Notes: generated from the letters alone by a model not told the origin. 64,000 nt of DNA from an uncultured Candidatus Saccharibacteria bacterium (GCA_964645245.1 CAZYBS010000003.1:9366-73365); one strand, 5' to 3'. Shown: positions 1,658 to 61,323, counted from the stretch's first letter. Program-made: numbers and translations.

Positions 1658-1737
1658 GTGGATGTGGTATAATACAGGTGTTTCTTATTATAATAATTTC
1701 CGCCAGAGGCGGATCAGCCTTTGGCTGAAACTTTTAT

Positions 1738-3065: not shown

Positions 3066-4647
3066 ATTAATAAAAATACAAAATAATAAGAGGCCCGCCT
3101 GCTGGCAGGCAGGCATGAGCCTCACAGAACTGATTGTTGTTTTGGGTATTTTTTCTGTAATGACTTCTGTGGTTCTTTTCAATTACGGGGAATTTCAAGC
3201 AAAGGTGGATATTAAAAATTTGGCCAGTGATATTGCTCTAAAAGTTGTTGAAGCGCAAAAGTTATCTCTATCAGGTAAATTACCACCACCCGCGCAACAG
3301 GCTCTTATCACCTCTCCTTCAACCTGGAAGCCGTCTTATGGAGTTTACTTTAATCTAAATCCTATTTCTGAAAATAAGAACTTTATTTATTTTACTGATG
3401 TAGATCAGAATAAAGATTTTAATGACCCTGGCTGCGCCGGGAACGGTGAATGCCTGGAAAAAATTATTATTACAAAAGGAAACAGTATCTCTAGTTTGGA
3501 TGTTTTTTATCAAGGCGATATTACCCCTCATAATTTAAATGACTTGACTATAACTTTTACAAGGCCTAATTCAGGCGCAATTATAAAATCTTCGCAAATT
3601 ATTTTACCCCTAGCAACCCCCATCTCTTATGTTCAAGTATCTATAGTTTCACCCAAATCATCTACTGCTGCAATAAAAGTGTACTCTTCAGGCAGGATCC
3701 AAATAGAAAGTAATCCTCTCCCCCACGCCACGCCCTATACCACTCCTTATGCAACGCCCTATACCACTCCTTATGCAACGCCCTATACCACTCCATACGC
3801 TTATCAATATCAATATCAATATCAATATCAATATCAATACCAATACCAGTATCAATATCAAACTCCTTATGCATATCCGTATCCCACTCCTCCGCCTACG
3901 CCCACCATTACCTATAGCGGACCCACTTCCGGCACACATATAATTGGTTCCGGGCCTTTAAATCTAACCACCCCCGGCGCTTATACCATAACTGTTAATG
4001 TTAGTGCTTCAGTAATAGTAAAAGGTGTGGCTGGTGGTGGCGGTGGCCAGTCCGGCGGAAACGGCGGCGGCGGCGGTGCGTCTCATACCTCGGGTGTGGG
4101 CGTGACTCTTAATCCTGGGACAACTTATACGGCAAGGGTTGGAGCTGGTGGCGGCGTCAATGCCGATGGTGGGACGACGGAGTTTCTTCCGGGAGGATTT
4201 CAGCTTACCGGCGGTGGTAGTGGTGTTAATGGAGGTGCCGGGGGCATCGCCTCTGGCAGTGGTGAAAACGGGGGTAATGGCGGTGGCGGTGGTAGAACTA
4301 CTGATGGCGGTCAGGGTACTAGTGGCAAGAGCGGTGGGAGCGGCGGTCCTGGTGGTGGTGGTGGTGGTGGTGGCAACGATGAGCGTGGTCAAGAAGGCGG
4401 CGGTGGCGGTAGCGGGGGATCTGGCGGTGATCAGGGTGGCGCCGGCGGAGGTTCGAGTGGCGGACCCGGTGGTAGTGCATCCGGCAACGGCGGCGGCGGC
4501 GGTTGCTATACGTGCGGTAGTGGCGGTGGCGGTGGCGGTGGTAAGTCGCTTGCGGGAGGTTTTCGCGGCGGCGGCGGCGGCGGCGGTAGCGTCGGTGGTG
4601 GTGGTACTGGTGGTACTGGCGGTCAGGGTGCGTTAGTCATTCAATAA
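3058..4647 (+). CDS. Pseudopilin-like protein with Tyr/Pro tandem repeats and a ~200-aa Gly-rich C-terminal tail
   Basis: The leader MFKLIKIQNNKRPACWQAG|MSLTELIVVLGIF fits a class III signal. The track ORF begins at TTG 3052; ATG at 3058 is preferred. The body has (TPYTTPYATPY)x2.5 plus (YQ)x10, then GGGGGQSGGNGGGGG... to the end. Confidence 0.65.
   Translation: MFKLIKIQNNKRPACWQAGMSLTELIVVLGIFSVMTSVVLFNYGEFQAKVDIKNLASDIALKVVEAQKLSLSGKLPPPAQQALITSPSTWKPSYGVYFNLNPISENKNFIYFTDVDQNKDFNDPGCAGNGECLEKIIITKGNSISSLDVFYQGDITPHNLNDLTITFTRPNSGAIIKSSQIILPLATPISYVQVSIVSPKSSTAAIKVYSSGRIQIESNPLPHATPYTTPYATPYTTPYATPYTTPYAYQYQYQYQYQYQYQYQYQYQTPYAYPYPTPPPTPTITYSGPTSGTHIIGSGPLNLTTPGAYTITVNVSASVIVKGVAGGGGGQSGGNGGGGGASHTSGVGVTLNPGTTYTARVGAGGGVNADGGTTEFLPGGFQLTGGGSGVNGGAGGIASGSGENGGNGGGGGRTTDGGQGTSGKSGGSGGPGGGGGGGGNDERGQEGGGGGSGGSGGDQGGAGGGSSGGPGGSASGNGGGGGCYTCGSGGGGGGGKSLAGGFRGGGGGGGSVGGGGTGGTGGQGALVIQ
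3721..3870 (+). repeat. Coding tandem repeats: ~30-bp unit (acgccctataccactccttatgca) x ~2.5 followed by (tatcaa)n hexamer array of about 10 units
   Basis: Direct reading of 3721-3870. Encodes TPYTTPYATPY... and YQYQYQ. Potentially slippage-prone. Confidence 0.8.
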
Positions 4648-5832: not shown

Positions 5833-8393
<2,561 letters not shown>

Positions 8394-17548: not shown

Positions 17549-19647
<2,099 letters not shown>

Positions 19648-33327: not shown

Positions 33328-36300
33328 ATGCATATAGAAAAAGCTCGGCCGAAGAAATATTTTTCAAGATATAAAAAGCCTCTAGTAGAATTTCCCAATT
33401 TGATTGAAGCTCAAGTCAAAAGTTTCAAGTGGCTGATGGAGCAGGGTATCGGCGAAGTTTTTAAGGAATTTTCTCCAATCTCCGATTACTCCGGAAAAAA
33501 ATTTCAATTGGATTTTACCTCGTTTTCACTAAGTGAGTGCAAGTACGACGAGAATAATGCTAAAATAAATAAACTTTCATATCAAGGGCTTTTGAAGGCT
33601 CGGGTAAAATTGACAAATAAAATTCTGGGCACCGCGAAAGAACAGGAGATTTTCATGTCGGAGTTTCCCTTGATGACCTCGCATGGGACTTTTATTATCA
33701 ACGGCGTAGAGCGCGTTATCGTGCCGCAGCTGGCTAGGAGTTTCGGAGTTTTCTTTACCGAGTCTGAAAATAAGGGTAATAGATATTTTGGAGCTAAAAT
33801 TATTCCAGCCCGTGGAGTTTGGATTGAAATAGAGTCAGAAGCGGATGGAGCGATTTACATCAGAATAGACAAAAAAAGAAAATTCCCCGCGACCGCGCTG
33901 CTTCGGGCTATGGGTTATGAAAATAATGAGGCTATCTTGAAAGCTTTTTCCGCCAAAGGCGCCACGCCTGCCGGCGGGCAGGGACCAGCCTCCCCGGCCT
34001 CGCCAAGCGAAGCGGGGCGGGCGGGCTGGGAAGAAACAATAAAAACTTGTTTGGCCAAAGATGGAGTCAAGAGTTTAAATGACTCGTATATTGAAATTTA
34101 CAAACGCCTCCGAGATGGTGATATGGCGACAGCTGATAATGCCAAAGAGTTCATCAACTCTTTGTTTACCGCGGAGCGCTACGATCTTTCTCCAGTCGGT
34201 CGCTTTAGGTTTAATCAGAGATTTAACAATGCCATGGACGAAGCGGCGCTCGCCCGCAGAACTATTTTCAAAGAAGATTTAGTGACGGTGATTATGAATA
34301 TCATTATTTTAAATAATACTCCGGGAGCCAAGTCTGATGACATAGATCATTTGGGTCAGAGGCGCGTGCGATTCGTCGGCGAAATACTTCAGCAGAAAGT
34401 GCGCACTGGCATGATGCAAATCAAGAGAAATATCCAAGACCGCATGTCTATTATTGACGTTGATACCGCCATGCCTATCGCTATTATCAATCAACGTCCG
34501 CTGCAAGCTCGCATCAAAGAATTTTTCACTACCAACCAACTTTCACAATTTATGGCGCAAGAAAATGTGCTTTACGAAATAGAGCATTTACGTACTCTCT
34601 CCGCTTTGGGACCTGGAGGACTGACCCGCGAGCGCGCGGGGCTGGAAGTTCGCGATGTGCATCCTTCCCACTATGGGAGAGTTTGCCCGATTCATACTCC
34701 GGAAGGCCCGAACATCGGACTTATTTTACACCTTTCCACCTATGCGAAAATAAATGAATTTGGAATTATTGAAACTCCGTATATGAAAGTTAAAAATGGC
34801 AAGCTGACTGGCGAAGTAGTTTACTTAAATGCACTGGAGGAGGAAAAATATAACATTGCCCATGCCGGAATTCCTTATGATGGAAATGGAAAAATAAATG
34901 AAGAAAAAGTGGAGGCTAGGATTAAAACAGAACCGGGCACTATTTCTCGAAATGAAGTTGATTTTATTGATGTTGCCGCCAACCAAGGTTTTTCTATAGC
35001 AACTTCTATGATTCCTTTCCTAGAACACAATGATGCCAATAGGGCCTTGATGGGAAGCAATATGCAAAAACAAGCCGTGCCTTGCGTACTGCCGGAAGCG
35101 CCATTGGTGGCAACCGGTATTGAAGAACTAGCATCACGAGATTCAGGCAGACTGGTCATAGCGCAAGAGGATGGCATTGTTTCATATTTAGATGCAAAAA
35201 AAATAATCGTTAAGGGAAAATCACCTGCCCGCAATGCTTCGCATAGCGATGCAGGCGGGGAGAAAACTTACCCACTCATAAACTTTATGAGGAATAACAA
35301 CTTTGCCGTATTTCATCAGCGTCCAGCCGTCAATGTTGGCCAAAAGATAAAGAAGGGTGAGGTGTTGGCAGATACTAGTAGTACGGTGGCTGGGCAGATT
35401 TCACTGGGGCAGAATATTTTTGTGGCTTTTTTATCTTGGTCCGGATCAAACTATGAGGATGCGATAATTATTTCTGAGCGTCTGGTGAAAAAGAGCAAAT
35501 TTACCAGTGTTTATGTTGAGGAATTTGTTTGTGTAGTTCGTGATACTAAACTCGGGCCGGAAATTACTACTCGTGATATACCGAATGTTGGAGAACTCAA
35601 GCTTAAAGACTTGGATGAAGATGGTATCGTTCGGATTGGGGCGGAAGTCAGGGAAAATGATATTTTAGTCGGTAAAATTACTCCAAAGGGCGAAACTGAA
35701 TTAACTCCGGAAGAGCGGCTATTGCGTTCAATTTTTGCCGAAAAAGCGCGTGATGTGAAAGATACATCACTTAGAATGGAACACGGCAAGCGCGGGCGCA
35801 TCATTGGTATAAAGATTTTCTCCCGTGACCTTGGACACTCACTGGAAGCGGGAATTATTAAAAAAATTGTGATTGAAGTCGCGCAAATCCGCAATATTTC
35901 AGTTGGAGACAAACTTTCCGGACGACATGGGAATAAGGGCGTTATTTCAACAATTCTGCCGGAAGAAGATATGCCTTATACCGCAGATGGTACACCAGTT
36001 GATATTATACTCTCGCCCTTGGGCATTCCTTCTCGTATGAACTTAGGACAAATTTTGGAAATGCATCTTGGTATGGCAGCTAACAGTCTTGGTTATCAAG
36101 CCATTGTTCCGCCATTTTTAGGAGCTAAGCATGAAGAAATTAAAGAAGAGTTGGAAAAAGCCGGACTTCCAGAAAATGGCAAGTTAAAACTTTTTGATGG
36201 ACGCACCGGGGAAGCCTTTCAGCAAGATGTCGCTGTCGGCTACATGTATATGTTGAAGCTTCATCACATGGTAGAAGACAAAATTCATATGCGTTCAATC

Positions 36301-36591
36301 GGGCCTTATTCGCTGATTACTCAGCAGCCTCTTGGTGGAAAAGCTCAAGGGGGGGGTCAGCGATTCGGAGAAATGGAAGTCTGGGCATTGGAAGGCTATG
36401 GCGCGGCTTATACCTTGCGGGAAATGCTGACCATCAAGTCTGATGACATATTAGGCCGGTCTCAAACCTTTGATTCCATTATTAAAAATGAAACGATTAG
36501 ACCGCCCAATTCTCCAGCCTCGTTTAATGTCTTGCTCAATTATTTAAGAGGACTGGCACTGGATGTGAATTTGAAAAAAGAAAAAATATGA
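33328..36591 (+). CDS. rpoB: DNA-directed RNA polymerase beta subunit (carries an in-frame family C GC-rich insert)
   Basis: Conserved rpoB blocks throughout (FGEMEVWALEGYGAAYTLREMLTIKSDD, GRHGNKGVIS, LGPGGLTRERAG). Confidence 0.92.
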   Translation: MHIEKARPKKYFSRYKKPLVEFPNLIEAQVKSFKWLMEQGIGEVFKEFSPISDYSGKKFQLDFTSFSLSECKYDENNAKINKLSYQGLLKARVKLTNKILGTAKEQEIFMSEFPLMTSHGTFIINGVERVIVPQLARSFGVFFTESENKGNRYFGAKIIPARGVWIEIESEADGAIYIRIDKKRKFPATALLRAMGYENNEAILKAFSAKGATPAGGQGPASPASPSEAGRAGWEETIKTCLAKDGVKSLNDSYIEIYKRLRDGDMATADNAKEFINSLFTAERYDLSPVGRFRFNQRFNNAMDEAALARRTIFKEDLVTVIMNIIILNNTPGAKSDDIDHLGQRRVRFVGEILQQKVRTGMMQIKRNIQDRMSIIDVDTAMPIAIINQRPLQARIKEFFTTNQLSQFMAQENVLYEIEHLRTLSALGPGGLTRERAGLEVRDVHPSHYGRVCPIHTPEGPNIGLILHLSTYAKINEFGIIETPYMKVKNGKLTGEVVYLNALEEEKYNIAHAGIPYDGNGKINEEKVEARIKTEPGTISRNEVDFIDVAANQGFSIATSMIPFLEHNDANRALMGSNMQKQAVPCVLPEAPLVATGIEELASRDSGRLVIAQEDGIVSYLDAKKIIVKGKSPARNASHSDAGGEKTYPLINFMRNNNFAVFHQRPAVNVGQKIKKGEVLADTSSTVAGQISLGQNIFVAFLSWSGSNYEDAIIISERLVKKSKFTSVYVEEFVCVVRDTKLGPEITTRDIPNVGELKLKDLDEDGIVRIGAEVRENDILVGKITPKGETELTPEERLLRSIFAEKARDVKDTSLRMEHGKRGRIIGIKIFSRDLGHSLEAGIIKKIVIEVAQIRNISVGDKLSGRHGNKGVISTILPEEDMPYTADGTPVDIILSPLGIPSRMNLGQILEMHLGMAANSLGYQAIVPPFLGAKHEEIKEELEKAGLPENGKLKLFDGRTGEAFQQDVAVGYMYMLKLHHMVEDKIHMRSIGPYSLITQQPLGGKAQGGGQRFGEMEVWALEGYGAAYTLREMLTIKSDDILGRSQTFDSIIKNETIRPPNSPASFNVLLNYLRGLALDVNLKKEKI
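33964..34030. repeat. Family C GC-rich element in-frame in rpoB (encodes TPAGGQGPASPASPSEAGRAGW). Hairpin CCTGCCggcgGGCAGG + 35-mer gcctccccggcctcgccaagcgaagcggggcgggc
   Basis: The 35-mer is identical to the one in dnaG (40878-40912). About 75% GC. Confidence 0.8.
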
Positions 36592-39500
36592 AAACTTTAA
36601 ACACAACTGAATTTGATCACATCGCGCTTCGGCTGGCTTCACCGGAGCAGATAAAAGAATGGTCTTTTGGAGAAGTTACTAAGCCGGAGACGATAAATTA
36701 CCGTACTGGCCGGTCCGAGCGTGGAGGTCTTTTTGATGAAAAAATATTCGGACCGGAAAAAGATTACGAATGTTATTGCGGGAAGTATCGCCGAATCCGT
36801 TATAAAGATATTATTTGCGAGAAATGCGGAGTGGAAGTCACTCGCTCTATCGTGCGCCGGGAGCGAATGGGGCACATTGAGCTTTCTACCCCGGTGTCGC
36901 ATATTTGGTTCTTGCGCGGGGTACCTTCTCGAATGAGCATCTTGCTTAATATATCTGTTTCGGATTTGGAAAAGGTAATATATTTTGCCGGCTATATAAT
37001 TACCAAGGTTCACGTCGATGAGAAAGAAAAACTTGTTGCCAATTTAGACAAAGAATATAAAGCTAAATTAAAAAATGCGGCTGATGACGATACCCGGGAG
37101 AAATTGAAAAACTTACTTTCTGTCACTAAAAAAGAAATTGGAGAAATTTATGAGGGAAAAGTCTTGAATGAAATTTCTTTTCACCATTATTCCTTGAAAT
37201 ACGGAACTTGTTTTGAAGCCAACATTGGCGCCGAAGCTATCTACTCTATCTTTAAAAATTTAGACTTAAATAAATTAAAAGTGCATACCGAGAAAATGAT
37301 CGAAAAGACTAGTATGGCTGAAAAAGAGAAGTTACAAAAAAGACTCTCTCTGATTCGCGCTATGACTTATGCCGGAATTCGACCGGAATGGATGTTTTTA
37401 ACTGTTATTCCGGTTATTCCGCCAGTGCTCCGTCCGATGGTGGCTCTGGATGGAGGCCGGCATGCGACCAGCGACTTAAATGATCTTTATCGCCGAGTTA
37501 TCAATAGAAATAACCGATTGAAGAAGCTGAAAGAAATTAATGCTCCAGACGTAATCTTGCGAAATGAGAAAAGAATTATTCAGGAAGCAGTCGATGCGCT
37601 GATTGATAACTCAATTGCCAAACAAAATGACAGCGCCGCGATGAGTCAGTCTCAGAAGCGTCCGCTTAAATCACTCTCCGATAATCTAAAATCTAAACAG
37701 GGCCTTTTCCGCCAGAATTTGCTCGGCAAGCGCGTGGATTACTCAGGTCGCTCGGTTATTGTTGTCGGGCCAGAGCTGAAGCTTAATCAATGCGGATTGC
37801 CAAAACATATGGCGCTGGAACTTTTCCGGCCGTTTGTGATTTCCAGAATTTTACAGGCCGAACTGGCCTTCAATATTCGCGGAGCCAACAAGCTTATAGA
37901 AGAACGTACTGGAGAAGTCTGGGCGATACTGGAAGAGGTTATTGCCGGGAAATATGTTCTTTTGAACCGCGCGCCGACTCTGCACCGCTTGGGTATTCAA
38001 GCTTTTAATCCGATTTTAATTGAAGGAAATGCCATTCAGGTCCACCCTCTTGTTTGTCAGGCTTTCAATGCCGACTTTGACGGAGACCAAATGGCGGTCT
38101 ATGTTCCTCTGCTAGAGGAAGCGCAATGGGAAGCGAAGGAATTGATGGCCGCCAATAAAAATTTGCTCAAACCGCAAAATGGAGATCCAATAGTAAATCC
38201 TAGCCGGGATATAGTGCTGGGGAGCTATTGGATGACTAAATCAATTAATGGAGAAGAAGGCGAAGGCAAATATTTTCCCAATCCCAATACTGCTATTCTG
38301 GCTCATGAATATGGAATTGTGTCTCTGCGCGCTAAAATAAAAGTTCTGGCAACAGACTCGCATAAATATGAAAAATTTAATGGAGGAATTTTTGAAACCT
38401 CGGTTGGTCGGCTTCTCTTTAACAGTATTTTGCCGAATGATTTCTCTTATGTGAATGATGAAATGACTCAAAAAAGACTGTCTTCACTTTTTGATGAGCT
38501 TATTTTACACTGTGGTGTGGACAATACCCCTCCTATCTTGGATAAGATCAAAGCTTTCGGCTTCAAGTACTCTACTGTCTCTGGTATCACTTGGGGACTG
38601 GACAATGTGAAGGTGCCTGCCGAGAAAGTAAAAATCATCGCCGAGAGCAGAAAATTGGAAGAAGAAACTATAGCTCAATGGAGCGAGGGTTTACTTTCGG
38701 AAGAAGAGAGATATCAGAAAATTATTGAAATTTGGACGCACGCCAAGAAGGATTTGGAAAAAGTTCTACCTAATACACTAGACAAAAATGGTTCTACTTA
38801 CGATATATTTACGTCAAGTGCTAGAGGCTCAATCGGTCAGCTTATTCAGATGGCTGGCATGAAAGGCTTGATCCAAAACAACCAGGGTAAGACTCTGGAA
38901 TTTCCTATTATTCCTTCTTACCAGGAAGGACTTTCTCCAATTGAATATTTCGTTACCACTCATGGTGCCCGTAAGGGTGCGTCAGATACTGCGCTCAACA
39001 CCGCTAAAGCCGGATATCTAACCCGAAGATTGGTTGATGTTGCGCAGGATGTAGTTATTACCGAAGAGGATTGCGGCACTAAGGAAGGTAAAATGGTTAC
39101 CAGAGAAAATATTTCTGGAATTGAAATTCCGCTTTCAAAAAATGTTCGCGGGCGGGTGCTGGCTGGTGATCTTAAAGTAAATGGCAAGGTGGTTTATAAG
39201 AAAGGATTTTTAGTTACCAAAGAGGAAGCTTACAATATTGAGGGAGCAGGTTTTACCGAAGTATTCGTTCGTTCTCCTCTTACCTGTCACACTGTTCATG
39301 GCCTTTGCGTCAACTGTTATGGACTGGACTTAGGGAGAAATCATTTAGTAGAGCTGGGTGAGGCCGTTGGTATTATTGCGGCTCAGGCCATCGGAGAGCC
39401 GGGCACTCAGCTTACGCTCCGCACCTTTCATGCTGGAGGGGTGGCTGGTACTGATATTACCACCGGGCTGCCACGTGTTGAAGAGATATTTGAAAGAAGA

Positions 39501-40208
39501 ATTCCGAAAAATCCGGCAATTATTTCTGAGACTGACGGGGAAATAATTTCTATCACAGCTAAAGATGGAAAGCCCGCCCGCAATGCTTTCAGCATAGCTG
39601 ATGCAGGCAGGGAAAAAATAATTAAAGTGCTCTCTGATACTAAAATTGACAGTAAGCCAAACGAAATAGAATATCTTATGGCTTTTCGCAGAATGCCGAT
39701 AGTTAAAGTAGGCGACCGTGTTAAGAAAGGGGACCTTTTAACTGATGGGTCTGCCGACATCGCTGAAATCTTTAAACTTGGGAATAAAGAATTAGTTGAA
39801 GAATATATAATTCGAGAAATAAACAAAGTTTACGAGCTGCAGAGCGCTTCAATTTCCAGAAAGCATACAGAAATAATTATTCGTCAGATGTTTTCGCGCA
39901 GAAAAATAAAAGACGCGGGCGAGACCAATTTTTCTATCAGTGATATCGTAGAAAATACCGCATTTATTGAAGAAAACTCCAGGATTGGACAATTAAGTGG
40001 AAAAGAGGCAAAAGCGGAGACAGTGGTGCTAGGTATTACAGAAGTGTCGCTGCGCACTAAAAGTTGGCTCTCGGCTGCATCGTTCCAAAATACTAACCGC
40101 GTTCTGATTGAAAACGCCATCAAGGGCGGAGTGGACTCTCTCCGAGGACTTAAAGAAAATGTTATAATTGGACGATTAATCCCAGCCGGGACCGGATTTA
40201 AAAAATAA
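36588..40208 (+). CDS. rpoC: DNA-directed RNA polymerase beta' subunit
   Basis: Zn-binding [23 protein letters not shown], catalytic [11 protein letters not shown], trigger loop and bridge helix regions. Confidence 0.92.
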
Positions 40209-40214
40209 ATTTTT

Positions 40215-41987
40215 ATGAACTCTCCCGTTGATAAAATTAAGGAGAGGCTTTCAATCGAAGAAATAGTCTCTTCTTACATAAAACTAGATCGGGCAGGCAC
40301 GAACTTGAAAGCCAAGTGTCCATTTCACAATGAAAAGACACCGTCTTTTTTCGTCTCGCCTAACCGCGGGAGTTATTATTGCTTCGGCTGTGGAGCCAGT
40401 GGTGATATTTTCACTTTCATAGAAGAATTTGAAGGACTTGATTTTAAGGGCGCGCTTAAATTTCTAGCAAATAAGGCAGGAGTTCCGCTTGATTATTACA
40501 ATAAAGAGGAAGAGAGTGAAAAAGAGAGATTATACAGGGCAATAGAAGAGTCAACTGTTTATTTTTCTAATAATTTACTGCAAAATGTTGAAGTACTAGA
40601 ATATTTAAAATCTCGCGGATTAACCGATAGGAGCATAAAGGATTTCAGAATCGGATATGCCCTGCCAGATTGGCGTAAACTCTATGATTACTTAAAGTTT
40701 AAAAATTTTACTGACAATGAAATGGAGCATGCCGGTCTCGTCAAAAAGCCAGATGATACAAATAAATCAATGTACGACAGATTTCGTGGACGCATCATAT
40801 TTCCGATTTCTGATTCCAGCGGTCGCATCATAGCTTTCACAGGGCGAATTTTCCCTGCCTCCGCCGAAGGCGGATCCGCCTCCCCGGCCTCGCCAAGCGA
40901 AGCGGGGCGGGCTGGCGGAAAATATCTAAACAGTCCAGATACTATAATTTTCAGCAAGTCCGCGGTGCTTTATGGATTAGATAAGGCTAAAGAATCAATT
41001 CGCAAGAATAATTTTTCTATTTTAGTTGAAGGTCAGATGGATTTGGTATTATCACATCAAGCGGGATATAAAAATACGGTTGCAACATCTGGCACGGCTT
41101 TGTCCGACTCGACGGTTTCGAAAGAAAATGTTATTTCCAACTTAGGACTTATTCGTCGTCTTTCTCCAAATATTGTGTTAGCATTTGACGCAGATAAAGC
41201 AGGATTTAATGCCTCAAATAGAGCCGGCAGGATTGCTTTATCTCTGGGCATGGATGTGAAAGTAGCATTTATGCCCGAGGGCATGGATCCGGCTGACTTG
41301 ATTTCTCAAAATGGTTCTCTTGCTGGTCCGGATGCCTGGCGTCTTGCCATTAGAAATTCCAAACATATAATAGAATTTCTTTTAGAAAAAGTCTTAAAGG
41401 ATTCTGGAGGCGATACGCGCAAGGCCGGAAGGGGAATAAAAGAAAAAATATTGCCTTATGTAGACGCGCTTGAGAGTTCAATAGAAAAAATGCATTTTAT
41501 AAAAAAAATAAGCGATGCTTCGGGAATTCCGGAAAGTGCTCTTAAAGATGATTTAAAGACAATTGAACAAGAATTGAAATATGAAACAGAAGAAACAGAA
41601 ACTGCTAAAGAAAATGTGGAGAAAAAATTTAGAAAAGACCCAATTGAACGCAGGCTTTTAGGAATAGCTTTTTGGCAAGAGAGTATGCAAAATAGAACCA
41701 TAGACCCAGAACTTATTTTTAAAAAATTAGATAAAGTAAAAAAAGTTTACGAAGATATAAAAGAAGATCTAATTTACGAGGCAGAAGTATTTTATTCTAA
41801 TAGTGAAAATTTACAAAAAGACGTAAATGAGATGTTGCTGAATATTGAAGAAGAGTATTTAAATGAAGAACTTGTTAAAAAAATGATAGAACTTAAGAAT
41901 CTAAAAGATAAAAAAGAAGAAATAGAAATTTTAAAAAAGATAAACGAAATAAATAAAAGAAAAGAAGAAATTAAAAATAATCGTTAA
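40215..41987 (+). CDS. dnaG: DNA primase DnaG (carries an in-frame family C insert)
   Basis: Zn-ribbon CPFHNEKTPSFFVSPNRGSYYCFGCGASGD, Toprim EGQMDLVLSHQAGYKNTVATSGTAL...AFDADKAG. Confidence 0.88.
   Translation: MNSPVDKIKERLSIEEIVSSYIKLDRAGTNLKAKCPFHNEKTPSFFVSPNRGSYYCFGCGASGDIFTFIEEFEGLDFKGALKFLANKAGVPLDYYNKEEESEKERLYRAIEESTVYFSNNLLQNVEVLEYLKSRGLTDRSIKDFRIGYALPDWRKLYDYLKFKNFTDNEMEHAGLVKKPDDTNKSMYDRFRGRIIFPISDSSGRIIAFTGRIFPASAEGGSASPASPSEAGRAGGKYLNSPDTIIFSKSAVLYGLDKAKESIRKNNFSILVEGQMDLVLSHQAGYKNTVATSGTALSDSTVSKENVISNLGLIRRLSPNIVLAFDADKAGFNASNRAGRIALSLGMDVKVAFMPEGMDPADLISQNGSLAGPDAWRLAIRNSKHIIEFLLEKVLKDSGGDTRKAGRGIKEKILPYVDALESSIEKMHFIKKISDASGIPESALKDDLKTIEQELKYETEETETAKENVEKKFRKDPIERRLLGIAFWQESMQNRTIDPELIFKKLDKVKKVYEDIKEDLIYEAEVFYSNSENLQKDVNEMLLNIEEEYLNEELVKKMIELKNLKDKKEEIEILKKINEINKRKEEIKNNR
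40857..40918. repeat. Family C GC-rich element in-frame in dnaG (encodes PASAEGGSASPASPSEAGRAGG). Hairpin CCGCCgaaGGCGG + the same 35-mer
   Basis: Identical 35-mer to the rpoB copy. The flanking hairpin differs in sequence but keeps its pairing. Confidence 0.8.
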
Positions 41988-41997
41988 TTAAAAAAGT

Positions 41998-43194
41998 ATG
42001 AAAAAGAAAAACAAAAAATTAAATAGAAAAAGAAAAAAGCTTAAAATCAAAAAAATAAAGAGAATTAAGAAAAAAATTTTAAAGAAAAAAGCTGTCAAAA
42101 AAATAAAAAAATTATCTTCAATTGGGAAAAAAGCGGAAAGTTTAGCTCGCATTTCCAGTGAGCTTATAGAAAAAGGACGCAAAAGGGGATTTATTACTTA
42201 TGATGAAATATTAAAAACTTTCCCTGACATTGAAAATAATATTCTATTTTTAGACGAACTTTATGAGAAATTTGGAATTGCCGGGATTGATGTGCTAGAA
42301 GGCGGAAATTTGCTTAATCTTGATATTGATTTGACTGATAAAGATTTAAATAAATCGAGCATGCATGATTCTATCCAAATGTATCTTAAGGAAATAGGTC
42401 AGTATCCGCTGATTCATGCGGGTGATGAAAAGGAACTTGCCAAACGCATTGAGCATGGCGATTTAGAAGCGAAAAATTTGCTGGCGCGCGCCAACTTGCG
42501 TCTGGTCGTTTCAATTGCTAAAAAATATGTGGGCAGGTCCGCCAATTTGACTCTGTTGGATTTAATTCAGGAAGGTAATTTAGGATTATTCAAGGCAGTT
42601 GAAAAATTTGATTGGACTAAAGGATATAAATTCTCTACTTATGCGACTTGGTGGATTCGCCAGTCTATTACTCGCGCGCTGGCTGACCAGTCCAGAACTA
42701 TTCGCATACCAGTGCATATGGTGGAGACAATTTCTAAATATAAACAAACGCATCGCAGACTTAGCCAGGATTTAGGCCGAGAGCCATTGGCCGAAGAAAT
42801 TGCCACGGAAATGGGTATTCCGGTGGAAAAAATCCATGTAATTGAAAACATTTCGCAAGAGACAGTTTCGTTGGAACAGCCCGTCGGGGACGATGATGAT
42901 AAGTCAACCCTGGAAAACTTTATTCCAGATGATAAAATTTTACGTCCAGACCAAGAGTCTTCCCGCCGAATTCTCTCAGATCAAATTCGCGAAGTTTTGA
43001 ATGAGCTCAATCCCAAGGAGCGCAAAATACTGGAGATGCGTTATGGATTACTAGATGGTATTCAACACACCCTGGAGCGAGTAGGCGAAGAATTTGGCGT
43101 GACTCGTGAGCGTATTCGTCAAATCGAAGCGAAAGTGCACGAAAAACTCCGCCAGCACGAAAAAATCTCCCGCTTAAAGAGCCACTTTGACTAG
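41998..43194 (+). CDS. rpoD: RNA polymerase primary sigma factor (sigma-70 family) with Lys-rich N-terminus
   Basis: Region 1.2/2 ([15 protein letters not shown]...[37 protein letters not shown]...[13 protein letters not shown]), region 4 ([20 protein letters not shown]). Confidence 0.9.
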
Positions 43195-43937
43195 TTTTCA
43201 ACAAACCCAGCAAATCCAGCAAGAAATCCAGCAAGGGTAGTCCTTGCTGGACTATAGTGTTGACGAAATATTTCTTCTTGTGTTTTGAAATCTAATTTCA
43301 CGTTTTTTATATATTCTGGGATAAAAGAAAAGTCAATAATGCTTGATTCTGGCCGATTATTTTTTAGAAAATCTGGATAACTTGATAATTGATATTTTTT
43401 TAAAAATTCTTCGGCTTCTTTTTTATTTTTTATACCTGTTTCTTTCCATTTTCCATCTAAGATTGAAAGAGGATTAAGATGCAAGTATGAAAATATATAC
43501 ATATATTGCGCTTCATTGTTTAAGTGCTCGGATCGAAATGGATGTGTAAATAGAGGACCGCTACGCTCGTATTTTGTGTTGAAATACATTGAATATGCAG
43601 TCAGAAGTTTACCCATAAATTTACTTATACCGCCCTCGGTATGCTCATATAAAATCAAATGAAAATGATTTGGCATTAGACAATAACCTAAAATTGAAAC
43701 CAAGGCTTTCTCTCTTTCTTCTTTAAAAATTTCTCTAAGCTGATTTTTATTTTTTTGTAAAAAATTATCCATTCTAAACGATACGTCTTGATTCATAATA
43801 TACAAAAGAGCCACGAAACGACTATAGTCCCTTGCGTTCAAAAATATCTTGCGTTTTTCTACGCCGCGAGAATAAATGTGGTAATGTTCATTTTCCGCAA
43901 ATGGGGTTTTTCGATACATTCCTAGATTGTATAACAA
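43191..43937 (-). CDS. Y1 HuH transposase (IS200-like / REP-associated tyrosine transposase family), 248 aa
   Basis: [15 protein letters not shown]...[16 protein letters not shown] (HuH motif)...[12 protein letters not shown]. The C-terminal [11 protein letters not shown] is encoded by the terminal hairpin repeats. Confidence 0.7.
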
Positions 43938-43975
43938 AATCGAAACTCCAGCAAGGACTACCCTTGCTGAATTGC
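43191..43975 (-). mobile_element. Compact IS200/IS605-like or RAYT-like element: Y1 (HuH) transposase gene flanked by inverted hairpin repeats CCAGCAAGG-n5-CCTTGCTGG
   Basis: Hairpin at 43237-43259 (loop gtagt) and its reverse complement at 43951-43972 (loop actac) bracket the ORF. The element abuts the rpoD stop. Confidence 0.65.
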
Positions 43976-43980
43976 TTTAA

Positions 43981-50894: not shown

Positions 50895-51665
50895 TCTTTA
50901 TAGACGTCCGACATCTACAGTGATATATTATAGGCATGAGAAAACATCCTTTTATCACTGGTTCATATTTTCATATTTACAACAGAGGCGTTGATAAACG
51001 TGATATTTTCATGGACGGAAAAGATGTGGAAAGATTTTTATTGTGCATGAAGTTGTTTGCATATAAAGATCCCGTAGGAAGTTTAGAATTAGCGCTTCGT
51101 GAACAAGAATCATTTGTAGACGTTCGACATCTCCAAATTCCGGCAGATAGAAAACGATTGGTTTCCATTGTTGAATATTGTCTTAACCCAAATCATTTTC
51201 ATTTTATACTGAAACAGGAACTTGGTGGTGGTATTAGTGAATTTATGAAGCGATTACAGGGTGGTTACACAAGGTATTTTAATGATAAAAATAACCGTAG
51301 CGGAGCGTTACTTCAAGGTAAATTTAAATCAAGCTACGCAGAGAAAGAAAATTATTTTGAAATGCTTTTTGCATATGTGATGTGGAATTATAAGGTCCAC
51401 AATATCTCTAAAAATAAATTAAAATTAACACGTAGTAGTGAAGAAGAATATAAAACAGCCAATTTTTATATAATAAATCCAAAAGAAGGAAAAAAGTTTT
51501 TAGAATGGTTCGGTGATTATAAAAGTTTCCTTAAACATGGAAAGGAAATAATTGATCTGGTGCGGGAAAGTAGGGGTAAGAAACCCTGGAAAGCCGACAG
51601 TAAAGAGGAAGTAAGTTTTGATTATAATGATGATTAAATGTAGACGTCCGACGTCTACAAAGGTG
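50895..51665 (+). mobile_element. Second IS200/RAYT-like element: Y1 transposase gene flanked by near-palindromic hairpins TAGACGTCCGAC(A/G)TCTACA
   Basis: Hairpin at 50902-50920 upstream and 51642-51660 downstream (TGTAGACGTC-C-GACGTCTACA). A degenerate copy lies inside the ORF at about 51105. Confidence 0.65.
50936..51637 (+). CDS. Y1 HuH transposase (IS200-like / RAYT family), 233 aa
   Basis: SYFHIYNRGVDKRDIF...VEYCLNPNHFHFILKQ (HuH)...YVMWNY. Paralogous to 43191-43937 at roughly 35% identity by eye. Confidence 0.7.
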   Translation: MRKHPFITGSYFHIYNRGVDKRDIFMDGKDVERFLLCMKLFAYKDPVGSLELALREQESFVDVRHLQIPADRKRLVSIVEYCLNPNHFHFILKQELGGGISEFMKRLQGGYTRYFNDKNNRSGALLQGKFKSSYAEKENYFEMLFAYVMWNYKVHNISKNKLKLTRSSEEEYKTANFYIINPKEGKKFLEWFGDYKSFLKHGKEIIDLVRESRGKKPWKADSKEEVSFDYNDD

Positions 51666-51736: not shown

Positions 51737-53020
51737 ATGAAACAATCAAAACTTTTTACTAAAACTAGGAAAGAAATACCGGCGGACGAAGTGTCTAAAA
51801 ACGCCGAATTACTTATTCGCGGGGGCTTTATTCACAAGGAAATGGCTGGAGTTTACAGCTATTTGCCCCTGGGACTTCGGGTGCTGAAGAAAATTGAAAA
51901 TATAATTAGAGAAGAAATGAATAAAGTTGGCGGGCAGGAAGTCCTGATGTCTTCTTTTCAACCAAAAGAAAATTGGGAAAAAACCGGCCGATGGGAGGTA
52001 ATGGATGATTTGTATAAAGTGAGTGATGCGTCCGGCCGGGAAGTTGCCTTGGGTCCCACTCATGAAGAGATTGTTGTCCCTATTTTAAAAAATTATGTTT
52101 CCTCGCACAAAGATTTTCCTATATATATTTATCAGATTCAAAACAAATTTAGAATGGAACTTCGCGCGAAATCCGGGATGCTTCGGGGCAGAGAATTTGT
52201 CATGAAAGATATGTATTCTTTTCACGCGAGAGCGGAAGATTTTGAAAAATTTTATAATAAAATGAAAGATGTTTATAAGACTATTTTTCAAAGAGTCGGT
52301 ATTGGCCACTTGACTTATATAACTTTCGCTTCGGGCGGAACTTTCTCCAAATATTCACACGAATTTCAGACCATTACTCCCATCGGTGAAGATATTATTT
52401 ATGTTGACGAAGCAAGCGGTACGGCCATCAATCAAGAAGTTTTTAATGATGAAGTTTTAAGCCAGCTAAATTTGACCAAAGAAAAATTAATTGAGCATAA
52501 GGCTATTGAAATCGGTAATATTTTTGACTTAAAGACAAAATATTCACAGCCATTTGACTTATCGTACACGGACGAAAAAGGAGAAAAACACATTGTTTTG
52601 ATGGGTTGTTATGGCATAGGATTAGGACGTCTTTTAGGCACGGTAGTAGAGGTTCTTTCCGATGATAAGGGCATCATTTGGCCGGAATCAATAGCGCCGT
52701 TTCAAGTGCATTTATTGGCTCTGGGAGATGATGAGGAAATTTCAATGGAAGCTGATAAAGTTTACCAGAGTTTATTGAAAGCTAATATTGAAGTTTTATT
52801 TGACGATAGGAGAGATGTGTCGGCCGGAGAAAAGTTTGCTGATTCGGATTTACTGGGTATTCCTTGGCGCGCAGTTATTTCTACTCGAAGTTTAAAAGAG
52901 GGAGGGATAGAATTAAAAAAACGTACGGAACCCGCCTCCGCTAAAGCTTCGGACGGGCAAGGAAAAAGTAAAATTGTTTCACTAAAAGAATTAATCAAAT
53001 TACTAGCACCTAGAACCTAG
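51737..53020 (+). CDS. proS: Prolyl-tRNA synthetase, bacterial-type core lacking the editing (INS) domain
   Basis: Aligns with E. coli ProRS N-terminus and class II motifs (LRAKSGMLRGREFVMKDMYSFH; GCYGIGLGRLLG), anticodon-binding C-terminus. The C-terminal PASAKASDGQGKS is encoded by a GC-rich family B-like hairpin. Confidence 0.85.
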   Translation: MKQSKLFTKTRKEIPADEVSKNAELLIRGGFIHKEMAGVYSYLPLGLRVLKKIENIIREEMNKVGGQEVLMSSFQPKENWEKTGRWEVMDDLYKVSDASGREVALGPTHEEIVVPILKNYVSSHKDFPIYIYQIQNKFRMELRAKSGMLRGREFVMKDMYSFHARAEDFEKFYNKMKDVYKTIFQRVGIGHLTYITFASGGTFSKYSHEFQTITPIGEDIIYVDEASGTAINQEVFNDEVLSQLNLTKEKLIEHKAIEIGNIFDLKTKYSQPFDLSYTDEKGEKHIVLMGCYGIGLGRLLGTVVEVLSDDKGIIWPESIAPFQVHLLALGDDEEISMEADKVYQSLLKANIEVLFDDRRDVSAGEKFADSDLLGIPWRAVISTRSLKEGGIELKKRTEPASAKASDGQGKSKIVSLKELIKLLAPRT

Positions 53021-53040
53021 CACCTAAAACCTAATTCAAA

Positions 53041-54087
53041 ATGTTTGAAAAACTTTACAAATTAATTTCCAATGACATCGGTATAGATTTAGGCACATCC
53101 AATACCTTGGTTTATTTAAAAGGCCATGGCATCGTTATCAATGAGCCCTCCGTGGTGGCCGTCAATATCAAGACCAATCAGATTCTAGCTGTCGGCGCGA
53201 AAGCCAAAGAAATGCTGGGCCGCACTCCGGGGCACATTAAAGCTATTCGTCCTCTGGTGGAGGGCGTCATATCGGACTTTGAAATCACCGAAGAGATGCT
53301 TTCATATTTGATAAATAAAGCGAATAAAATATCGAAAAAATTGGCGCGGCCGAGAGTTTTAGTTGGCGTGCCGTCCGGTACAACCAATGTGGAAACGCGC
53401 GCCGTCTATGATGCGGCGCGTTCGGCCGGCGCGCGGGAAGTTTTCTTGGTGGAAGAACCGATGGCCGCCGCTATTGGCATCCGGCTGCCTATTAAAGACC
53501 CGGTCGGCTCGATGATTATAGATATTGGTGGCGGAACGACGGATATTGCGGTAATTTCTTTAGGCGGAGTCGTAAAGTCCAAAAACTTAAAAATAGCCGG
53601 TGATAGATTAAATAATGACATCATCACCTATATGCGTGATGAGTTTAAAATACTGATTGGCGAGAGAACTGCCGAGATGGTGAAGATTGCCATCGGTTCT
53701 GTTATTCCCGGAGAATACATGGAAACAGAAGTTCATGGGCGTGATCTTCTGACCGGACTGCCCCGTGCCGTGACGGTGACCGATGCCGATATCCGTGAGG
53801 CGCTTTTATTGTCAATTAAAGGATTGGTAGAGGGTGTGAAAGATATGCTGGAAACGACACCGCCGGAAATTTTATCTGACATAATGCATCGGGGGATTAC
53901 TCTCTCCGGCGGTGGGGCGCTCTTGCCCGGACTGGACCAGCTTTTACAGCGCGTTCTCAAAATTCCGGTTTACGTGGTAGAAGACCCGCTTTCGTCTGTC
54001 GCTCGCGGGACCGGAGTAATTTTAGATGATATTCCATTTTATCAAGAAGTTTTGATTGGGAATCAAAATGAGTTACCTCCTAGATAG
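53041..54087 (+). CDS. mreB: Rod shape-determining protein MreB
   Basis: IGIDLGTSNTLVY...VINEPSVVA...MIIDIGGGTTDIAV actin-fold phosphate motifs. Confidence 0.9.
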   Translation: MFEKLYKLISNDIGIDLGTSNTLVYLKGHGIVINEPSVVAVNIKTNQILAVGAKAKEMLGRTPGHIKAIRPLVEGVISDFEITEEMLSYLINKANKISKKLARPRVLVGVPSGTTNVETRAVYDAARSAGAREVFLVEEPMAAAIGIRLPIKDPVGSMIIDIGGGTTDIAVISLGGVVKSKNLKIAGDRLNNDIITYMRDEFKILIGERTAEMVKIAIGSVIPGEYMETEVHGRDLLTGLPRAVTVTDADIREALLLSIKGLVEGVKDMLETTPPEILSDIMHRGITLSGGGALLPGLDQLLQRVLKIPVYVVEDPLSSVARGTGVILDDIPFYQEVLIGNQNELPPR

Positions 54088-54901
54088 AAAAATAAAGAGA
54101 AAAAAGTTTCTGTATGTTGTGTTTTTTGCCATTATTTTACTTATCTTGTTTTATTTTAGATTAGGTATTTTCAGCGGTCTGGCTTATGCTAGTCATAAAA
54201 TTTTTCGTCCTGTTTTAATTTTAGGGAATAATATTGGTGAAAAAGTTTCCAATCTTGGTTCATTTTTTGTTTCCAAAAATTCTCTTTATAAACAAAATGA
54301 AAATCTTAAATCTCAATTAAATGAAAATAAAGCAATGATGATAAATTATAATTCTGTCCTGGCTGAGAATATTAACCTTAAAGAAATCCTGGGCAGGAAA
54401 AAAGAGCAAACTAATTTTATTTTGTCCGCTATATTGTCCAAACCGAACCAAAGTCTTTATGACACGCTGATTATTGACGTAGGCACAAATGGGGGAGTAA
54501 AAATAGGAAACATAATTTTTGCCCTCGGTAATGTGCCTATCGGGCGTGTGTCGGATGTCTACCAAAGTTCTTCAAAAATTATATTGTTCTCAAATGCAGG
54601 TGAAAAGACACAAGTAGTAATTGCTCCTAAGGATACCCGCCCGAACGACCGGAGTCGTCCGGTCGGGCAGGTTTTTATAGAGATAGTCGGGCGAGGGGGA
54701 GGGAATTTTGAAATGGCTTTACCAAGAGATTTCACGCTCTCCAAAGGAGATCAGATAGTTTTGCCTGGTATTAATCCTTATGTTTTAGGCACTGTTCAGA
54801 CGATAATTTCCGATCCGCGTGATCCTTTTGTCAAGGCTTTGCTGGTCAGTCCGGTGAATATACAAGAGCTTAAATTTGTGGAAGTAGAGTTGCAAAAGTA
54901 A
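54068..54901 (+). CDS. mreC: Rod shape-determining protein MreC (with in-frame family B GC-rich insert)
   Basis: Follows mreB; N-terminal TM, coiled coil (NENLKSQLNENK), C-terminal beta domain (GDQIVLPGINPYVLG). The track starts at TTG 54056. Confidence 0.75.
   Translation: MSYLLDRKIKRKKFLYVVFFAIILLILFYFRLGIFSGLAYASHKIFRPVLILGNNIGEKVSNLGSFFVSKNSLYKQNENLKSQLNENKAMMINYNSVLAENINLKEILGRKKEQTNFILSAILSKPNQSLYDTLIIDVGTNGGVKIGNIIFALGNVPIGRVSDVYQSSSKIILFSNAGEKTQVVIAPKDTRPNDRSRPVGQVFIEIVGRGGGNFEMALPRDFTLSKGDQIVLPGINPYVLGTVQTIISDPRDPFVKALLVSPVNIQELKFVEVELQK
54636..54671. repeat. Family B GC-rich hairpin in-frame in mreC (encodes TRPNDRSRPVGQ)
   Basis: cccgcccgaacgaccggagtcgtccggtcgggcagg: inner stem GACCGGA/TCCGGTC, outer imperfect stem. 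Confidence 0.75.
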
Positions 54902-56452: not shown

Positions 56453-56923
56453 ATGAAAAATTATTTTATTGGTTTTGCTGTATTAGTTATTTTTTTTGTA
56501 TCTTATCACTCTTGGACGGCCGTCAATTTTGATAATATAAAATATGTTCGGATAGCCGGGCAGAATATTAAAGTTGAACTTGCTTTGACCGAAAGGGAGC
56601 AAGAAAAAGGGCTTTCCGGAAGAAGCGGACTCGAAGAAGATAAAGGCATGTTGTTTGTTTTTTCCGCCCAAGGCGGATTCGCCTCTGGCGGAGATAAAGC
56701 TAACCACCCTAGATTTTGGATGAAGGATATGAATTTCGCAATAGATATAATTTGGATTGGGGAGGATTTACGAATAGTTTACATAAAAAAAGATGCTCGG
56801 CCCGAATCTTATCCGGAAACTTTCGGCTCTGACCAAAATTCCAAATATGTTTTGGAAGTTATTGCCGGTTTCGCGGATAAAAATAATTTGAAAAAAGGGG
56901 ATAGGGTGAAGCTCGTTTACTAA
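56453..56923 (+). CDS. DUF192 (COG1430) family protein with signal/TM N-terminus
   Basis: IKVELALTEREQEKGLSGRSGLEEDKGMLFVF...MKDMNFAIDIIWIGED is the DUF192 core. Confidence 0.65.
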   Translation: MKNYFIGFAVLVIFFVSYHSWTAVNFDNIKYVRIAGQNIKVELALTEREQEKGLSGRSGLEEDKGMLFVFSAQGGFASGGDKANHPRFWMKDMNFAIDIIWIGEDLRIVYIKKDARPESYPETFGSDQNSKYVLEVIAGFADKNNLKKGDRVKLVY

Positions 56924-57017: not shown

Positions 57018-57330
57018 TTTTTTGTTGCAGGCATCTATAAGCCGAATTCTGTATTCCCGACGCAAGGTCGGGATGATAGCAATTTGTCTAGGTCCGGCAT
57101 TACTGCGGGACTCAAGCGATTCTTCCCTCGATTTCTCTCGGGGCACGATCTTGCACAGGAGTAAGTATTTAGCCGTTTCAGCCGGACTTAACCGGGTCGT
57201 TTCTGTTCGCAACTCCGTATCACTACGGAAGGGTATTACCCTCTACTTTTTCCCGCTAAGCGGGATCTGTGTTCGGACTTTCCTCCCCTCACCTCTAGAG
57301 GTGAGGGGTAGCTATCCAATACCTGCTCAG
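57018..57330 (-). ncRNA. rnpB: RNase P RNA, reduced bacterial form (about 310 nt)
   Basis: On the minus strand: P4 5' strand GGAGGAAAGTCCGAACACAG and P4 3' strand ATACAGAATTCGGCTTATAGATG (consensus GGAAAGUCCGG...ACAGAAnnCGGCUUA). P1 pairing GAGCAGGTA/GATGCCTGC. Terminator CTCCGCCcataaGGCGGAG+TTTT at the 3' end. Putative promoter TTGCGA-17-TGTAAACT at 57333-57361. Confidence 0.8.
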
Positions 57331-61003: not shown

Positions 61004-61323
61004 TCCGGGGTAGCTCAGCGGTAGAGCGATCGCCTGTAGAGAGATGCAGCTTCCTAAAGAAACTTAGGAATGAAAACAAGGTGAATTCGGGGAAGCCCTT
61101 CGAGATAAACTCTCAGGGTAATCCCGAGCCAAGCTCTGGTAAGCCAGAGAAGGTGTAGAGACTATCCATTTATGGAGTACATCAACACTAAATGTTGATG
61201 GAAGCGCCTTGCTCCTAAACTTATAGCGCAGGCTATGAATATGGAGATGATATAGTCCACACTTCTAGTAATAGGAGATAAAGTGTAAGCGATTGGTCGT
61301 AGGTTCGATCCCTACCCCCGGAG
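61004..61323 (+). tRNA. tRNA-Asn (anticodon GUU) interrupted by a 248-nt group I intron in the anticodon loop (exons 61004-61037 and 61286-61323)
   Basis: Exons: TCCGGGG-TA-GCTC-AGCGGTA-GAGC-G-ATCGC-CTGT|TAA-GCGAT-TGGTC-GTAGG-TTCGATC-CCTAC-CCCCGGA-G. The spliced loop CUGUUAA and discriminator G73 match bacterial tRNA-Asn. Confidence 0.75.
61038..61285 (+). ncRNA. Group I self-splicing intron (IC3-like, as in bacterial tRNA introns)
   Basis: P7 strands GTAGAGACTATCC and GATGATATAGTCC. P4/P6 conserved ACTCTCAGGGTAATCCCGAGCCAAGC (compare cyanobacterial tRNA-Leu intron CUCAGGGAAACC...AAUCCUGAGCCAAGCC). IGS GCAG pairs with exon CUGU with U.G at the 5' splice site. Terminal omega-G at 61285. Confidence 0.75.

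Follow-up and report, generated by a model that had tools for sequence, protein, structure and literature searches.

Why should two unrelated genes for essential proteins carry, in frame, the same GC-rich sequence to the last nucleotide? The question is raised by a 64-kb stretch of DNA (the window) from the metagenome-assembled genome (MAG) of an uncultured bacterium, with a GC content of ~40% and a GC skew that climbs along the + strand across its whole length. A scan of the window recovers exact copies of the 35-mer GCCTCCCCGGCCTCGCCAAGCGAAGCGGGGCGGGC at 33988-34022 and 40878-40912, both on the + strand, with no third copy in the window at up to 3 mismatches and no match (0) in 100 dinucleotide shuffles of it. 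One copy lies within the open reading frame (ORF) of rpoB (33328-36591), the other within that of dnaG (40215-41987), whose primase domains are recognised by Pfam. Both are in frame and both encode the peptide ASPASPSEAGRAG, as had been claimed in the original prediction made from the sequence of the window. In RpoB the insert occupies residues 219-231, within a loop that is variable in relatives and close to the variable region near residue 210 to which it had been assigned, and in DnaG it lies between GRIF and KYLNSP, splitting this segment in the manner foreseen. The self-complementary hairpins said to precede the two copies are likewise present, as CCTGCCggcgGGCAGG in rpoB and TCCGCCgaaGGCGGA in dnaG (Table 1). 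Apart from the inserts neither gene is disrupted, and each aligns over its full length with its counterparts in relatives; the DnaG protein is 100% identical to the deposited primase of 'Parcubacteria group bacterium Gr01-1014_24' (P0001).

The extent of the shared element is revealed by relatives that lack it. A syntenic relative with the gene order rpoB-rpoC-dnaG-sigA (L053) has the dnaG loop TCCGCC GAA GGCGGA TCCGCC TCT GGCGGA, and the window has this same loop with exactly 30 nt added inside the second triloop, TCCGCC TC[CCCGGCCTCGCCAAGCGAAGCGGGGCGGGC]T GGCGGA. At the rpoB site a second relative (P0238/L055) reads CCAGCT TCG GGCTGG, encoding PASGW, where the window reads CCAGCC TC[30 nt]G GGCTGG. 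The difference between empty and filled sites is exactly 30 nt in both genes. Among the checks proposed along with the original prediction were comparison with relatives lacking the insert, which exposes these empty sites in L053 (dnaG) and L055 (rpoB), and inspection of the boundaries for target-site duplications, of which there are none at either insert, leaving a clean gain of 30 nt. The mobile unit is therefore the 30-nt sequence CCCGGCCTCGCCAAGCGAAGCGGGGCGGGC, with a boundary that is ambiguous by one C; the mobility attributed to a 35-nt module is supported but its length is not, the additional GCCTC being made up of the ends of the host hairpins and the target TC. The unit is built of a 26-nt imperfect hairpin, CCCCG-gcc-TCGC-caa-GCGA-ag-CGGGG, with stems of 5 bp and 4 bp, an internal loop and a CAA triloop, followed by a conserved 3' CGGG(C) tail. 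Its GC content is 83%, its length is a multiple of three (3n), and the predicted hairpin stability is -24.3 kcal/mol in both the rpoB and the dnaG contexts.

The unit entered the triloops of two different pre-existing small hairpins, and the hairpins and sequence around each copy are older, separate modules that form no part of the element. The upstream dnaG hairpin is also carried by L053, without the 30-mer. A reading of the compensatory outer stems as covariation was rejected, the stems being different host hairpins as judged from the empty sites of L053 and L055. A scan with the predicted empty dnaG allele and window-specific flank also finds the empty double-hairpin module in two unrelated metagenome contigs (L056 and L057), neither match being dnaG, so the double-hairpin module is itself dispersed. 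An unoccupied potential target of the same kind is present in the same genome, at 56663-56692. We compared the two loops with their closest homologues, which for DnaG were 120 proteins of 68-80% identity from Nomurabacteria/Paceibacterota. About 80 of these have the plain loop GRIF-xDDGKSA-KYLNSP and a single one, the window protein, has the insert peptide; the peptide is found in none of 120 RpoB homologues, most of which read KAFxK-NxxxE at the site.

Table 1. Copies of the 30-nt unit, their host hairpins and related features of the window.
Feature	Position	Strand	Remarks
Empty intergenic double small-hairpin module	1699..1728	+	TCCGCC AGA GGCGGA TCAGCC TTT GGCTGA
Two older GC-rich modules upstream in rpoB	33949..33982	+	Degenerate TCCGCCaaaGGCGCC at 33949-33963 and CCTGCCggcgGGCAGG at 33967-33982; L053 and L055 lack both here
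Small hairpin hosting the unit in rpoB	33985..34029	+	CCAGCC-TC[unit]G-GGCTGG; arms 33985-33990 and 34024-34029; assigned from the fold and the empty form PASGW in P0238/L055
30-nt unit CCCGGCCTCGCCAAGCGAAGCGGGGCGGGC in rpoB	33993..34022	+	Adds PASPSEAGRA; L055 lacks the 30 nt here
Double small-hairpin module in dnaG	40860..40919	+	TCCGCC GAA GGCGGA (TCCGCCgaaGGCGGA at 40860-40874), then TCCGCC TCT GGCGGA; unit in second triloop; form without the 30 nt in L053 dnaG
30-nt unit in dnaG, identical to the rpoB copy	40883..40912	+	TCCGCC TC[30 nt]T GGCGGA, against TCCGCC TCT GGCGGA in L053
IS200-like Y1 (HUH) transposase gene	43191..43937	-	Pfam PF01797; flanking hairpins TCCAGCAAGG-gtagt-CCTTGCTGGA at 43227-43251 and 43947-43971
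Second Y1 transposase paralogue	50936..51637	+	Shares 35% identity with the first; palindromes TAGACGTCCGACGTCTA at 50901 and 51641
Empty double small-hairpin module	56663..56692	+	TCCGCC CAA GGCGGA TTCGCC TCT GGCGGA; in frame (SAQGGFASGG) in ORF 56453-56923

The element is not private to the window genome but is found across many classes of Patescibacteria and beyond. A search of GTDB genomes (596 Gb) with the 26-nt core recovers 52 further loci in ~35 species-representative genomes, against a chance expectation of ~3e-4 by our own calculation; the search demanded an exact 26-mer, to which diverged relatives are invisible, so the apparent uniformity is partly an effect of the search. Exact copies number 2 per 64 kb in the window and 1-4 loci per MAG elsewhere. 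By their record titles the carriers include Kuenen-, Falkow-, Levy-, Gottesman-, Curtiss-, Doudna-, Portnoy- and Saccharibacteria and other Parcubacteria, together with nominal carriers from outside the Patescibacteria: Elusimicrobia, Brocadiaceae, Planctomycetia, Ignavibacteriaceae and 'Gammaproteobacteria'. At least one of the latter hosts looks genuine, because the Ignavibacteriaceae contig also encodes a type IX secretion system (T9SS) sorting-domain protein, which we take to mark the Fibrobacteres-Chlorobi-Bacteroidetes (FCB) group. The loci titled 'uncultured Gammaproteobacteria' (third-party annotation MAGs; L002, L006, L008, L009, L011, L017, L027, L028, L030, L044, L048, L050 and L051) are Patescibacteria-like in GC and repeat content, the leucyl-tRNA synthetase (LeuRS) of L006 is closest to Levybacteria proteins, and the labels are probably wrong.

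Diverged copies amount to one at 1 mismatch and one at 6 mismatches in the 478 kb examined. A decayed relative of the unit, CCTGGCTTCGCCAAGCGAAGCGGGCTGGCGG, lies at 2894-2930 (- strand) of L018, the same Ignavibacteriaceae contig that bears an intact copy, and hints at older insertions. The 26-mer core has no match (0) in IMG/VR viral contigs, and a 31-mer gives only chance-level matches (E >= 2), all to GC-rich organisms, among PLSDB plasmids and GenBank phages. The original prediction had taken the repeat to be recently mobile and not an ancient shared feature, a view now supported by its near-absence among the 120 DnaG and 120 RpoB homologues, by the empty sites and by its presence in dozens of unrelated genes in independent assemblies.

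For an analysis of the landing sites, the 30 nt were removed from each of 54 copies and the rejoined flanks were compared with a control. Twenty of the 54 junctions fall in tandem arrays of a 7-nt unit with the phase kept across the gap (control 0.2%), and 9/54 fall in a loop closed by a stem of 6 bp or more, typically as stem-TC^N-stem (control 4.6%). A T stands directly before the unit (CCCCGG) in 43/54 copies and the tail reads CGGGC in 47/54. The junctions show entry as a clean 30-nt block, with no target-site duplication, right after T (or TC). Where the target is a heptamer array it is usually split with three units on the left and two on the right, and arrays of ~5 units without the hairpin occur at the same loci and with the same units; among Levybacteria LeuRS proteins a heptamer-encoded peptide occupies the orthologous site in most homologues, the 30-mer being present in only one. 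The unit is thereby shown to land mid-way in other repeat modules, where single strands can become exposed. Both orientations are used. The top strand of the unit is on the G-rich strand in 37/54 copies (p ~0.01), an excess that fits insertion into the lagging-strand template.

Tandem arrays of ~4-5 copies of a 7-nt unit occur inside coding sequence at 19398-19431 of the window (the C-terminal part of gyrB) and at 53003-53033, and arrays of the same kind are seen in L006, L029, L031, L034, L047 and L050. Nearly every Levybacteria LeuRS homologue has an array at one site but with a differing unit (giving peptides such as KVKSQKSKVKS and KVQSAKCKVQ), which suggests concerted evolution or repeated gain.

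Most copies sit within genes, 37 of the 52 lying in ORFs of 200 aa or more. Every one of the six reading frames is in use, giving the peptides SPASPSEAGRA, PGLAKRSGAG, PRPRQAKRGG, ARPASLGEAGE, PAPLRLARPG and PPRFAWRGRG. The hosts that could be identified are ordinary cellular genes, mostly housekeeping: DnaK, DprA, LeuRS (twice), PGK, SecA (twice), PurD, SMC, MltG, PolX (twice), transketolase, RNase J, a MiaB-like protein, ribosomal proteins L3 and L17, UvrC (twice), GyrA, LysRS, PheRS, GatB, TrmD, Mur ligases and MurG. Intergenic copies likewise have ordinary genes as neighbours (a LysRS/AsnRS-type synthetase, ParB, Pth, GDH and DsbA), with no transposase or reverse transcriptase beside them. 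The 30-nt unit contains no stop codon in any of its six frames and its length is 3n, so it never breaks a reading frame; as read from the codons, insertion is predicted to be frame-neutral and to add ten small or charged residues.

The unit survives in permissive surface loops of essential proteins. The DnaG site corresponds to a gap relative to the Staphylococcus aureus primase, just ahead of KYLNSP, and the alignment of RpoB to the Escherichia coli beta subunit breaks between residues about 225 and 345, which we take to be the position of a lineage-specific insertion in the lobe. Both loops have received many independent inserts among relatives. The DnaG loop ahead of KYLNSP is a hotspot for such insertions: at least six different independent GC-encoded inserts are seen there among the 120 close relatives (SAEGGSASGGE.., CLPAGR.., VPARPPGWSGAGG.., PSTSSGQA.., LPAGRQ.. 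and SVPTPEGVGRPT...).

Taking these observations together, we consider that the rpoB and dnaG copies are probably insertions of one ultra-small, non-autonomous 30-nt mobile DNA unit. A trans-acting enzyme would recognise the hairpin and tail on single-stranded DNA and copy the unit, either by copy-out or by peel-and-paste. By analogy, the best mechanistic model would be an HUH/Y1-type strand transferase of the kind found in the insertion sequences IS200/IS605 and in systems of repetitive extragenic palindromes (REPs) with their REP-associated tyrosine transposases (RAYTs). Its preferred targets are single-strand-prone sites, namely the triloops of pre-existing 15-nt GC-rich hairpin modules in the window and the middle of 7-nt arrays in other genomes, and the unit would move between lineages horizontally.

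Two Y1 transposase genes lie in the window, and the original prediction had put forward these RAYT/IS200-like genes as candidate mobilisers. This found no support: the hairpins flanking each gene are private to it and unrelated to the unit, no link of either gene to the 30-mer was found, and there is no Y1 gene near the other copies (tblastn of both proteins against loci L001-L057 gives no homologue and nothing outside the window). The first gene is retained as a candidate for the enzyme class only. The arrangement of gene and palindromes is REPtron- or IS200-like, and of the palindromes bracketing the two genes (43191-43977 and 50901-51657) one has GTAG in its loop while the other contains CGTC. 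The first Y1 gene is not present in L053 between sigA and the glycosyltransferase.

Several points weigh against a mobile unit of this description. The mobilising enzyme itself was not found, neither in the window, where the Y1 hairpins are unrelated, nor near other copies, where Y1 homologues are missing. The unit has one hairpin where the ends of IS200/IS605 elements have two different ones, and it has no REP-like GTAG/CGTC tag. Exact copies are few (2/64 kb, and 1-4 loci per MAG) despite a sequence that is identical across deep lineages, and no vector copy was found in viral contigs (IMG/VR), phages (GenBank) or plasmids (PLSDB). The strand bias cannot be separated from gene orientation and stop-codon constraints, the polarity of insertion versus precise excision rests on parsimony, and translation of the inserted codons, including the insert-spanning peptide GGSASPASPSEAGRAGGK, is assumed.

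The main rival explanation dispenses with a dedicated transposase and has the unit spread by short-homology gene conversion, or by annealing at the replication fork (recombineering-like and possibly following natural transformation), between host modules that supply the flanking homology. We regard this as unlikely, yet it would accommodate several features well: the unit is found almost only within other repeated modules, filled and empty forms of the double-hairpin module exist side by side in one genome as well as between genomes, and the window, L001 and L021 share the composite 'hairpin1 + TCCGCC TC[unit]T GGCGGA AAA'. The flanks, however, are of at least 15 types, comprising heptamer units and hairpin arms and including CCAGCC/GGCTGG as well as TCCGCC/GGCGGA in the window alone, so many homology-independent jumps would still be needed. 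The available homology is also just 6-20 nt, and a junction fixed at one nucleotide, after T, speaks for site-specific chemistry.

Two further explanations are less likely than short-homology conversion. The modules could have been written from a conserved master template, RNA or DNA, by a reverse transcriptase or other polymerase acting at nicks or breaks, their identity then reflecting that of the template. Near-identical copies in deeply separated lineages with very few diverged ones (one at 1 mismatch and one at 6 in 478 kb) would be expected on such a scheme, and the neighbouring heptamer arrays resemble products of reiterative synthesis; we nevertheless find it improbable, as no additional non-coding master copy or adjacent reverse transcriptase or polymerase gene is present in the window or beside the intergenic copies, and there is no matching Rfam family. 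Neither the Rfam scan across the window nor a sensitive one at the dnaG site assigned the unit to a family, and for it only chance matches came up.

More doubtful still is the idea that the insert is kept for a function, as a peptide, as an mRNA hairpin with a regulatory effect on translation or decay, or as a site that ribosomes bypass in the manner of mitochondrial byp elements. Strong conservation of the sequence and the stable hairpin predicted in both contexts would agree with a function, and the GGC GGA codons of dnaG flank the second hairpin in a way superficially like take-off and landing codons. But the use of six frames yields six unrelated peptides, the hosts are unrelated genes and some copies are intergenic, and close relatives do without the unit; nor is there a stop codon or frame change that would demand bypassing, or a terminator-like T run after the hairpin on the sense strand. 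An assembly or chimeric artefact, which the metagenomic source of the sequence might suggest, or an ancient feature shared by descent is hardly credible, given the presence of the unit in ~35 MAGs from different studies and assemblers, the identical deposited DnaG protein (P0001), the relatives with exact empty sites and the absence of the insert from 119/120 DnaG and 120/120 RpoB homologues. Two other candidates were tried and rejected: a DNA-uptake sequence, given the low copy number and the arrival of the unit as a block insertion, and spacer integration of the Cas1 type, given the constant sequence of the insert and the lack of any duplicated repeat.

Returning to the mobile unit, we advance a wider proposal more tentatively, as one that may prove right but that we would not yet back: that Patescibacteria and neighbouring groundwater bacteria harbour an undescribed class of ultra-small mobile DNA that targets structure and has the unit as one of its members. 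Such a class would form a hierarchy, with frame-neutral modules (15+15-nt double hairpins, arrays of ~5 x 7 nt, 36-39-nt 'PARNA' hairpins and the 30-nt unit) that insert in each other's loops, cross phyla, continually remodel the surface loops of essential proteins and are mobilised by a novel single-strand DNA enzyme or mechanism.

The window has further modules. PARNASHSDAGG (36 nt) in rpoB at 35224-35259 and a 39-nt member in rpoC at 39573-39611 belong to a second hairpin family, are inserted in frame and are both absent from L053; a third member occupies the first rpoB site in the relative P0213. In ligA there are in-frame GC-rich palindromic modules of CCCCTCC...GGAGGGG types at 6777-6817 and 7584-7652, and one palindromic family occurs in opposite orientations at 12902-12944 (in a UvrD/PD-(D/E)XK helicase) and 54631-54679 (in ORF 54056-54901); the ligA and helicase-type modules are the other 'families' of the original prediction. 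The window also contains a group I intron (Rfam, 58 bits; 61028-61278, +), a bacterial RNase P RNA (Rfam; 57022-57327, -) and an ORF (3052-4647) for a low-complexity protein with tandem PTPYATPY and YQ repeats followed by a long Gly-rich GGx region, the local GC content of 55% being due to this Gly-rich and repeat coding.

If confirmed, the unit would be among the smallest mobile DNA units known, and one that appears built for harmlessness in coding sequence, being 3n in length and stop-free in six frames. It would account for some of the many lineage-specific insertions found in proteins of Patescibacteria (candidate phyla radiation, CPR), including RNA polymerase and primase, and would serve as a marker of recent DNA exchange between very distant uncultured lineages. 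The target rule, T^C located within either a hairpin triloop or a repeat array, would be concrete enough to guide the search for a new single-strand DNA strand-transfer activity. On the practical side, such modules can break assemblies, distort marker-gene alignments and phylogenies (e.g. of rpoB) and inflate families of 'hypothetical' peptides.

How does the unit compare with known systems? REPs are extragenic, high-copy and species-specific and bear a GTAG or CGTC tag. The unit resembles REP/RAYT and IS200/IS605 systems in being an imperfect GC-rich hairpin of 20-40 nt with an asymmetric tail, in the lack of target duplication, in its short specific target motif at single-strand-prone sites and in its replication-strand bias, and the window contains IS200-like Y1 genes. 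It is thus an imperfect palindrome within the REP size range of ~20-40 nt, but the GTAG/CGTC tetranucleotide expected at the foot of the hairpin is absent from both strands of CCCGGCCTCGCCAAGCGAAGCGGGGCGGGC, the copies are neither extragenic (37/52 in ORFs of at least 200 aa) nor numerous in one species (1-4 loci per MAG), and no RAYT gene is flanked by the same repeat, the hairpins of the window Y1 genes being different and Y1 genes being absent from L001-L057. Like palindrome-associated transposable elements (PATEs) derived from IS200/IS605, it has no terminal inverted repeats or target duplication and inserts 3' of a short motif (T before 43/54 copies), but in place of distinct left and right subterminal hairpins it has a single hairpin and a 4-5-nt tail. 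MITEs (miniature transposable elements with inverted repeats) have the terminal inverted repeats of a parent insertion sequence, duplicate their target site and span 50-500 bp; the unit, at 30 nt, makes no duplication, and no parent insertion sequence was found.

Judged by analogy, the closest counterparts are the yeast mitochondrial GC clusters and the Rickettsia palindromic elements (RPEs) with other intragenic MITEs. In yeast mitochondria, GC clusters are inserted in frame in var1 and can merge, their enzyme being unknown (PMC8811140). Like the 30-nt unit, the GC clusters (including the var1 inserts and the Magnusiomyces byp elements) are short GC-rich palindromes in a compact AT-rich genome, are polymorphic between close relatives, can sit in frame in genes and merge or nest together. 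They differ in that they belong to mitochondria, vary in sequence, lie mostly between genes and have AG/TAG terminal repeats interpreted as target duplications, whereas the unit has bacterial hosts, a fixed length of 30 nt, no duplication, a preponderance of housekeeping genes among its hosts and an identical sequence across very distant lineages. Composition, size and polymorphism match those of a GC cluster, but there are no terminal repeats beyond the 1-nt C ambiguity and the genetic systems differ.

RPEs and other intragenic MITEs (Coxiella QMITE, enterobacterial repetitive intergenic consensus (ERIC) sequences and Anabaena MITEs) are found in frame in unrelated cellular genes, with a peptide compatible with protein function (PMC10969869). 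The palindromic repeat and its in-frame insertion into cellular genes are shared with the unit, but RPEs are ~100-150 bp long and confined to the genus Rickettsia, with a single conserved peptide, read in one frame, for each family, whereas the unit uses six frames, targets the loops of other repeats and is common to phylum-level lineages. Size, taxon and single-frame use thus separate the unit from the RPEs, with in-frame insertion alone common to both. A published description of the 30-nt unit was not found in the literature searched, whose coverage was incomplete, so that a prior description may exist. The unit departs from these analogues in size, in being read in six frames, in nesting within loops and in staying identical across deep lineages, and would be a form of in-frame palindromic selfish DNA, a known kind.

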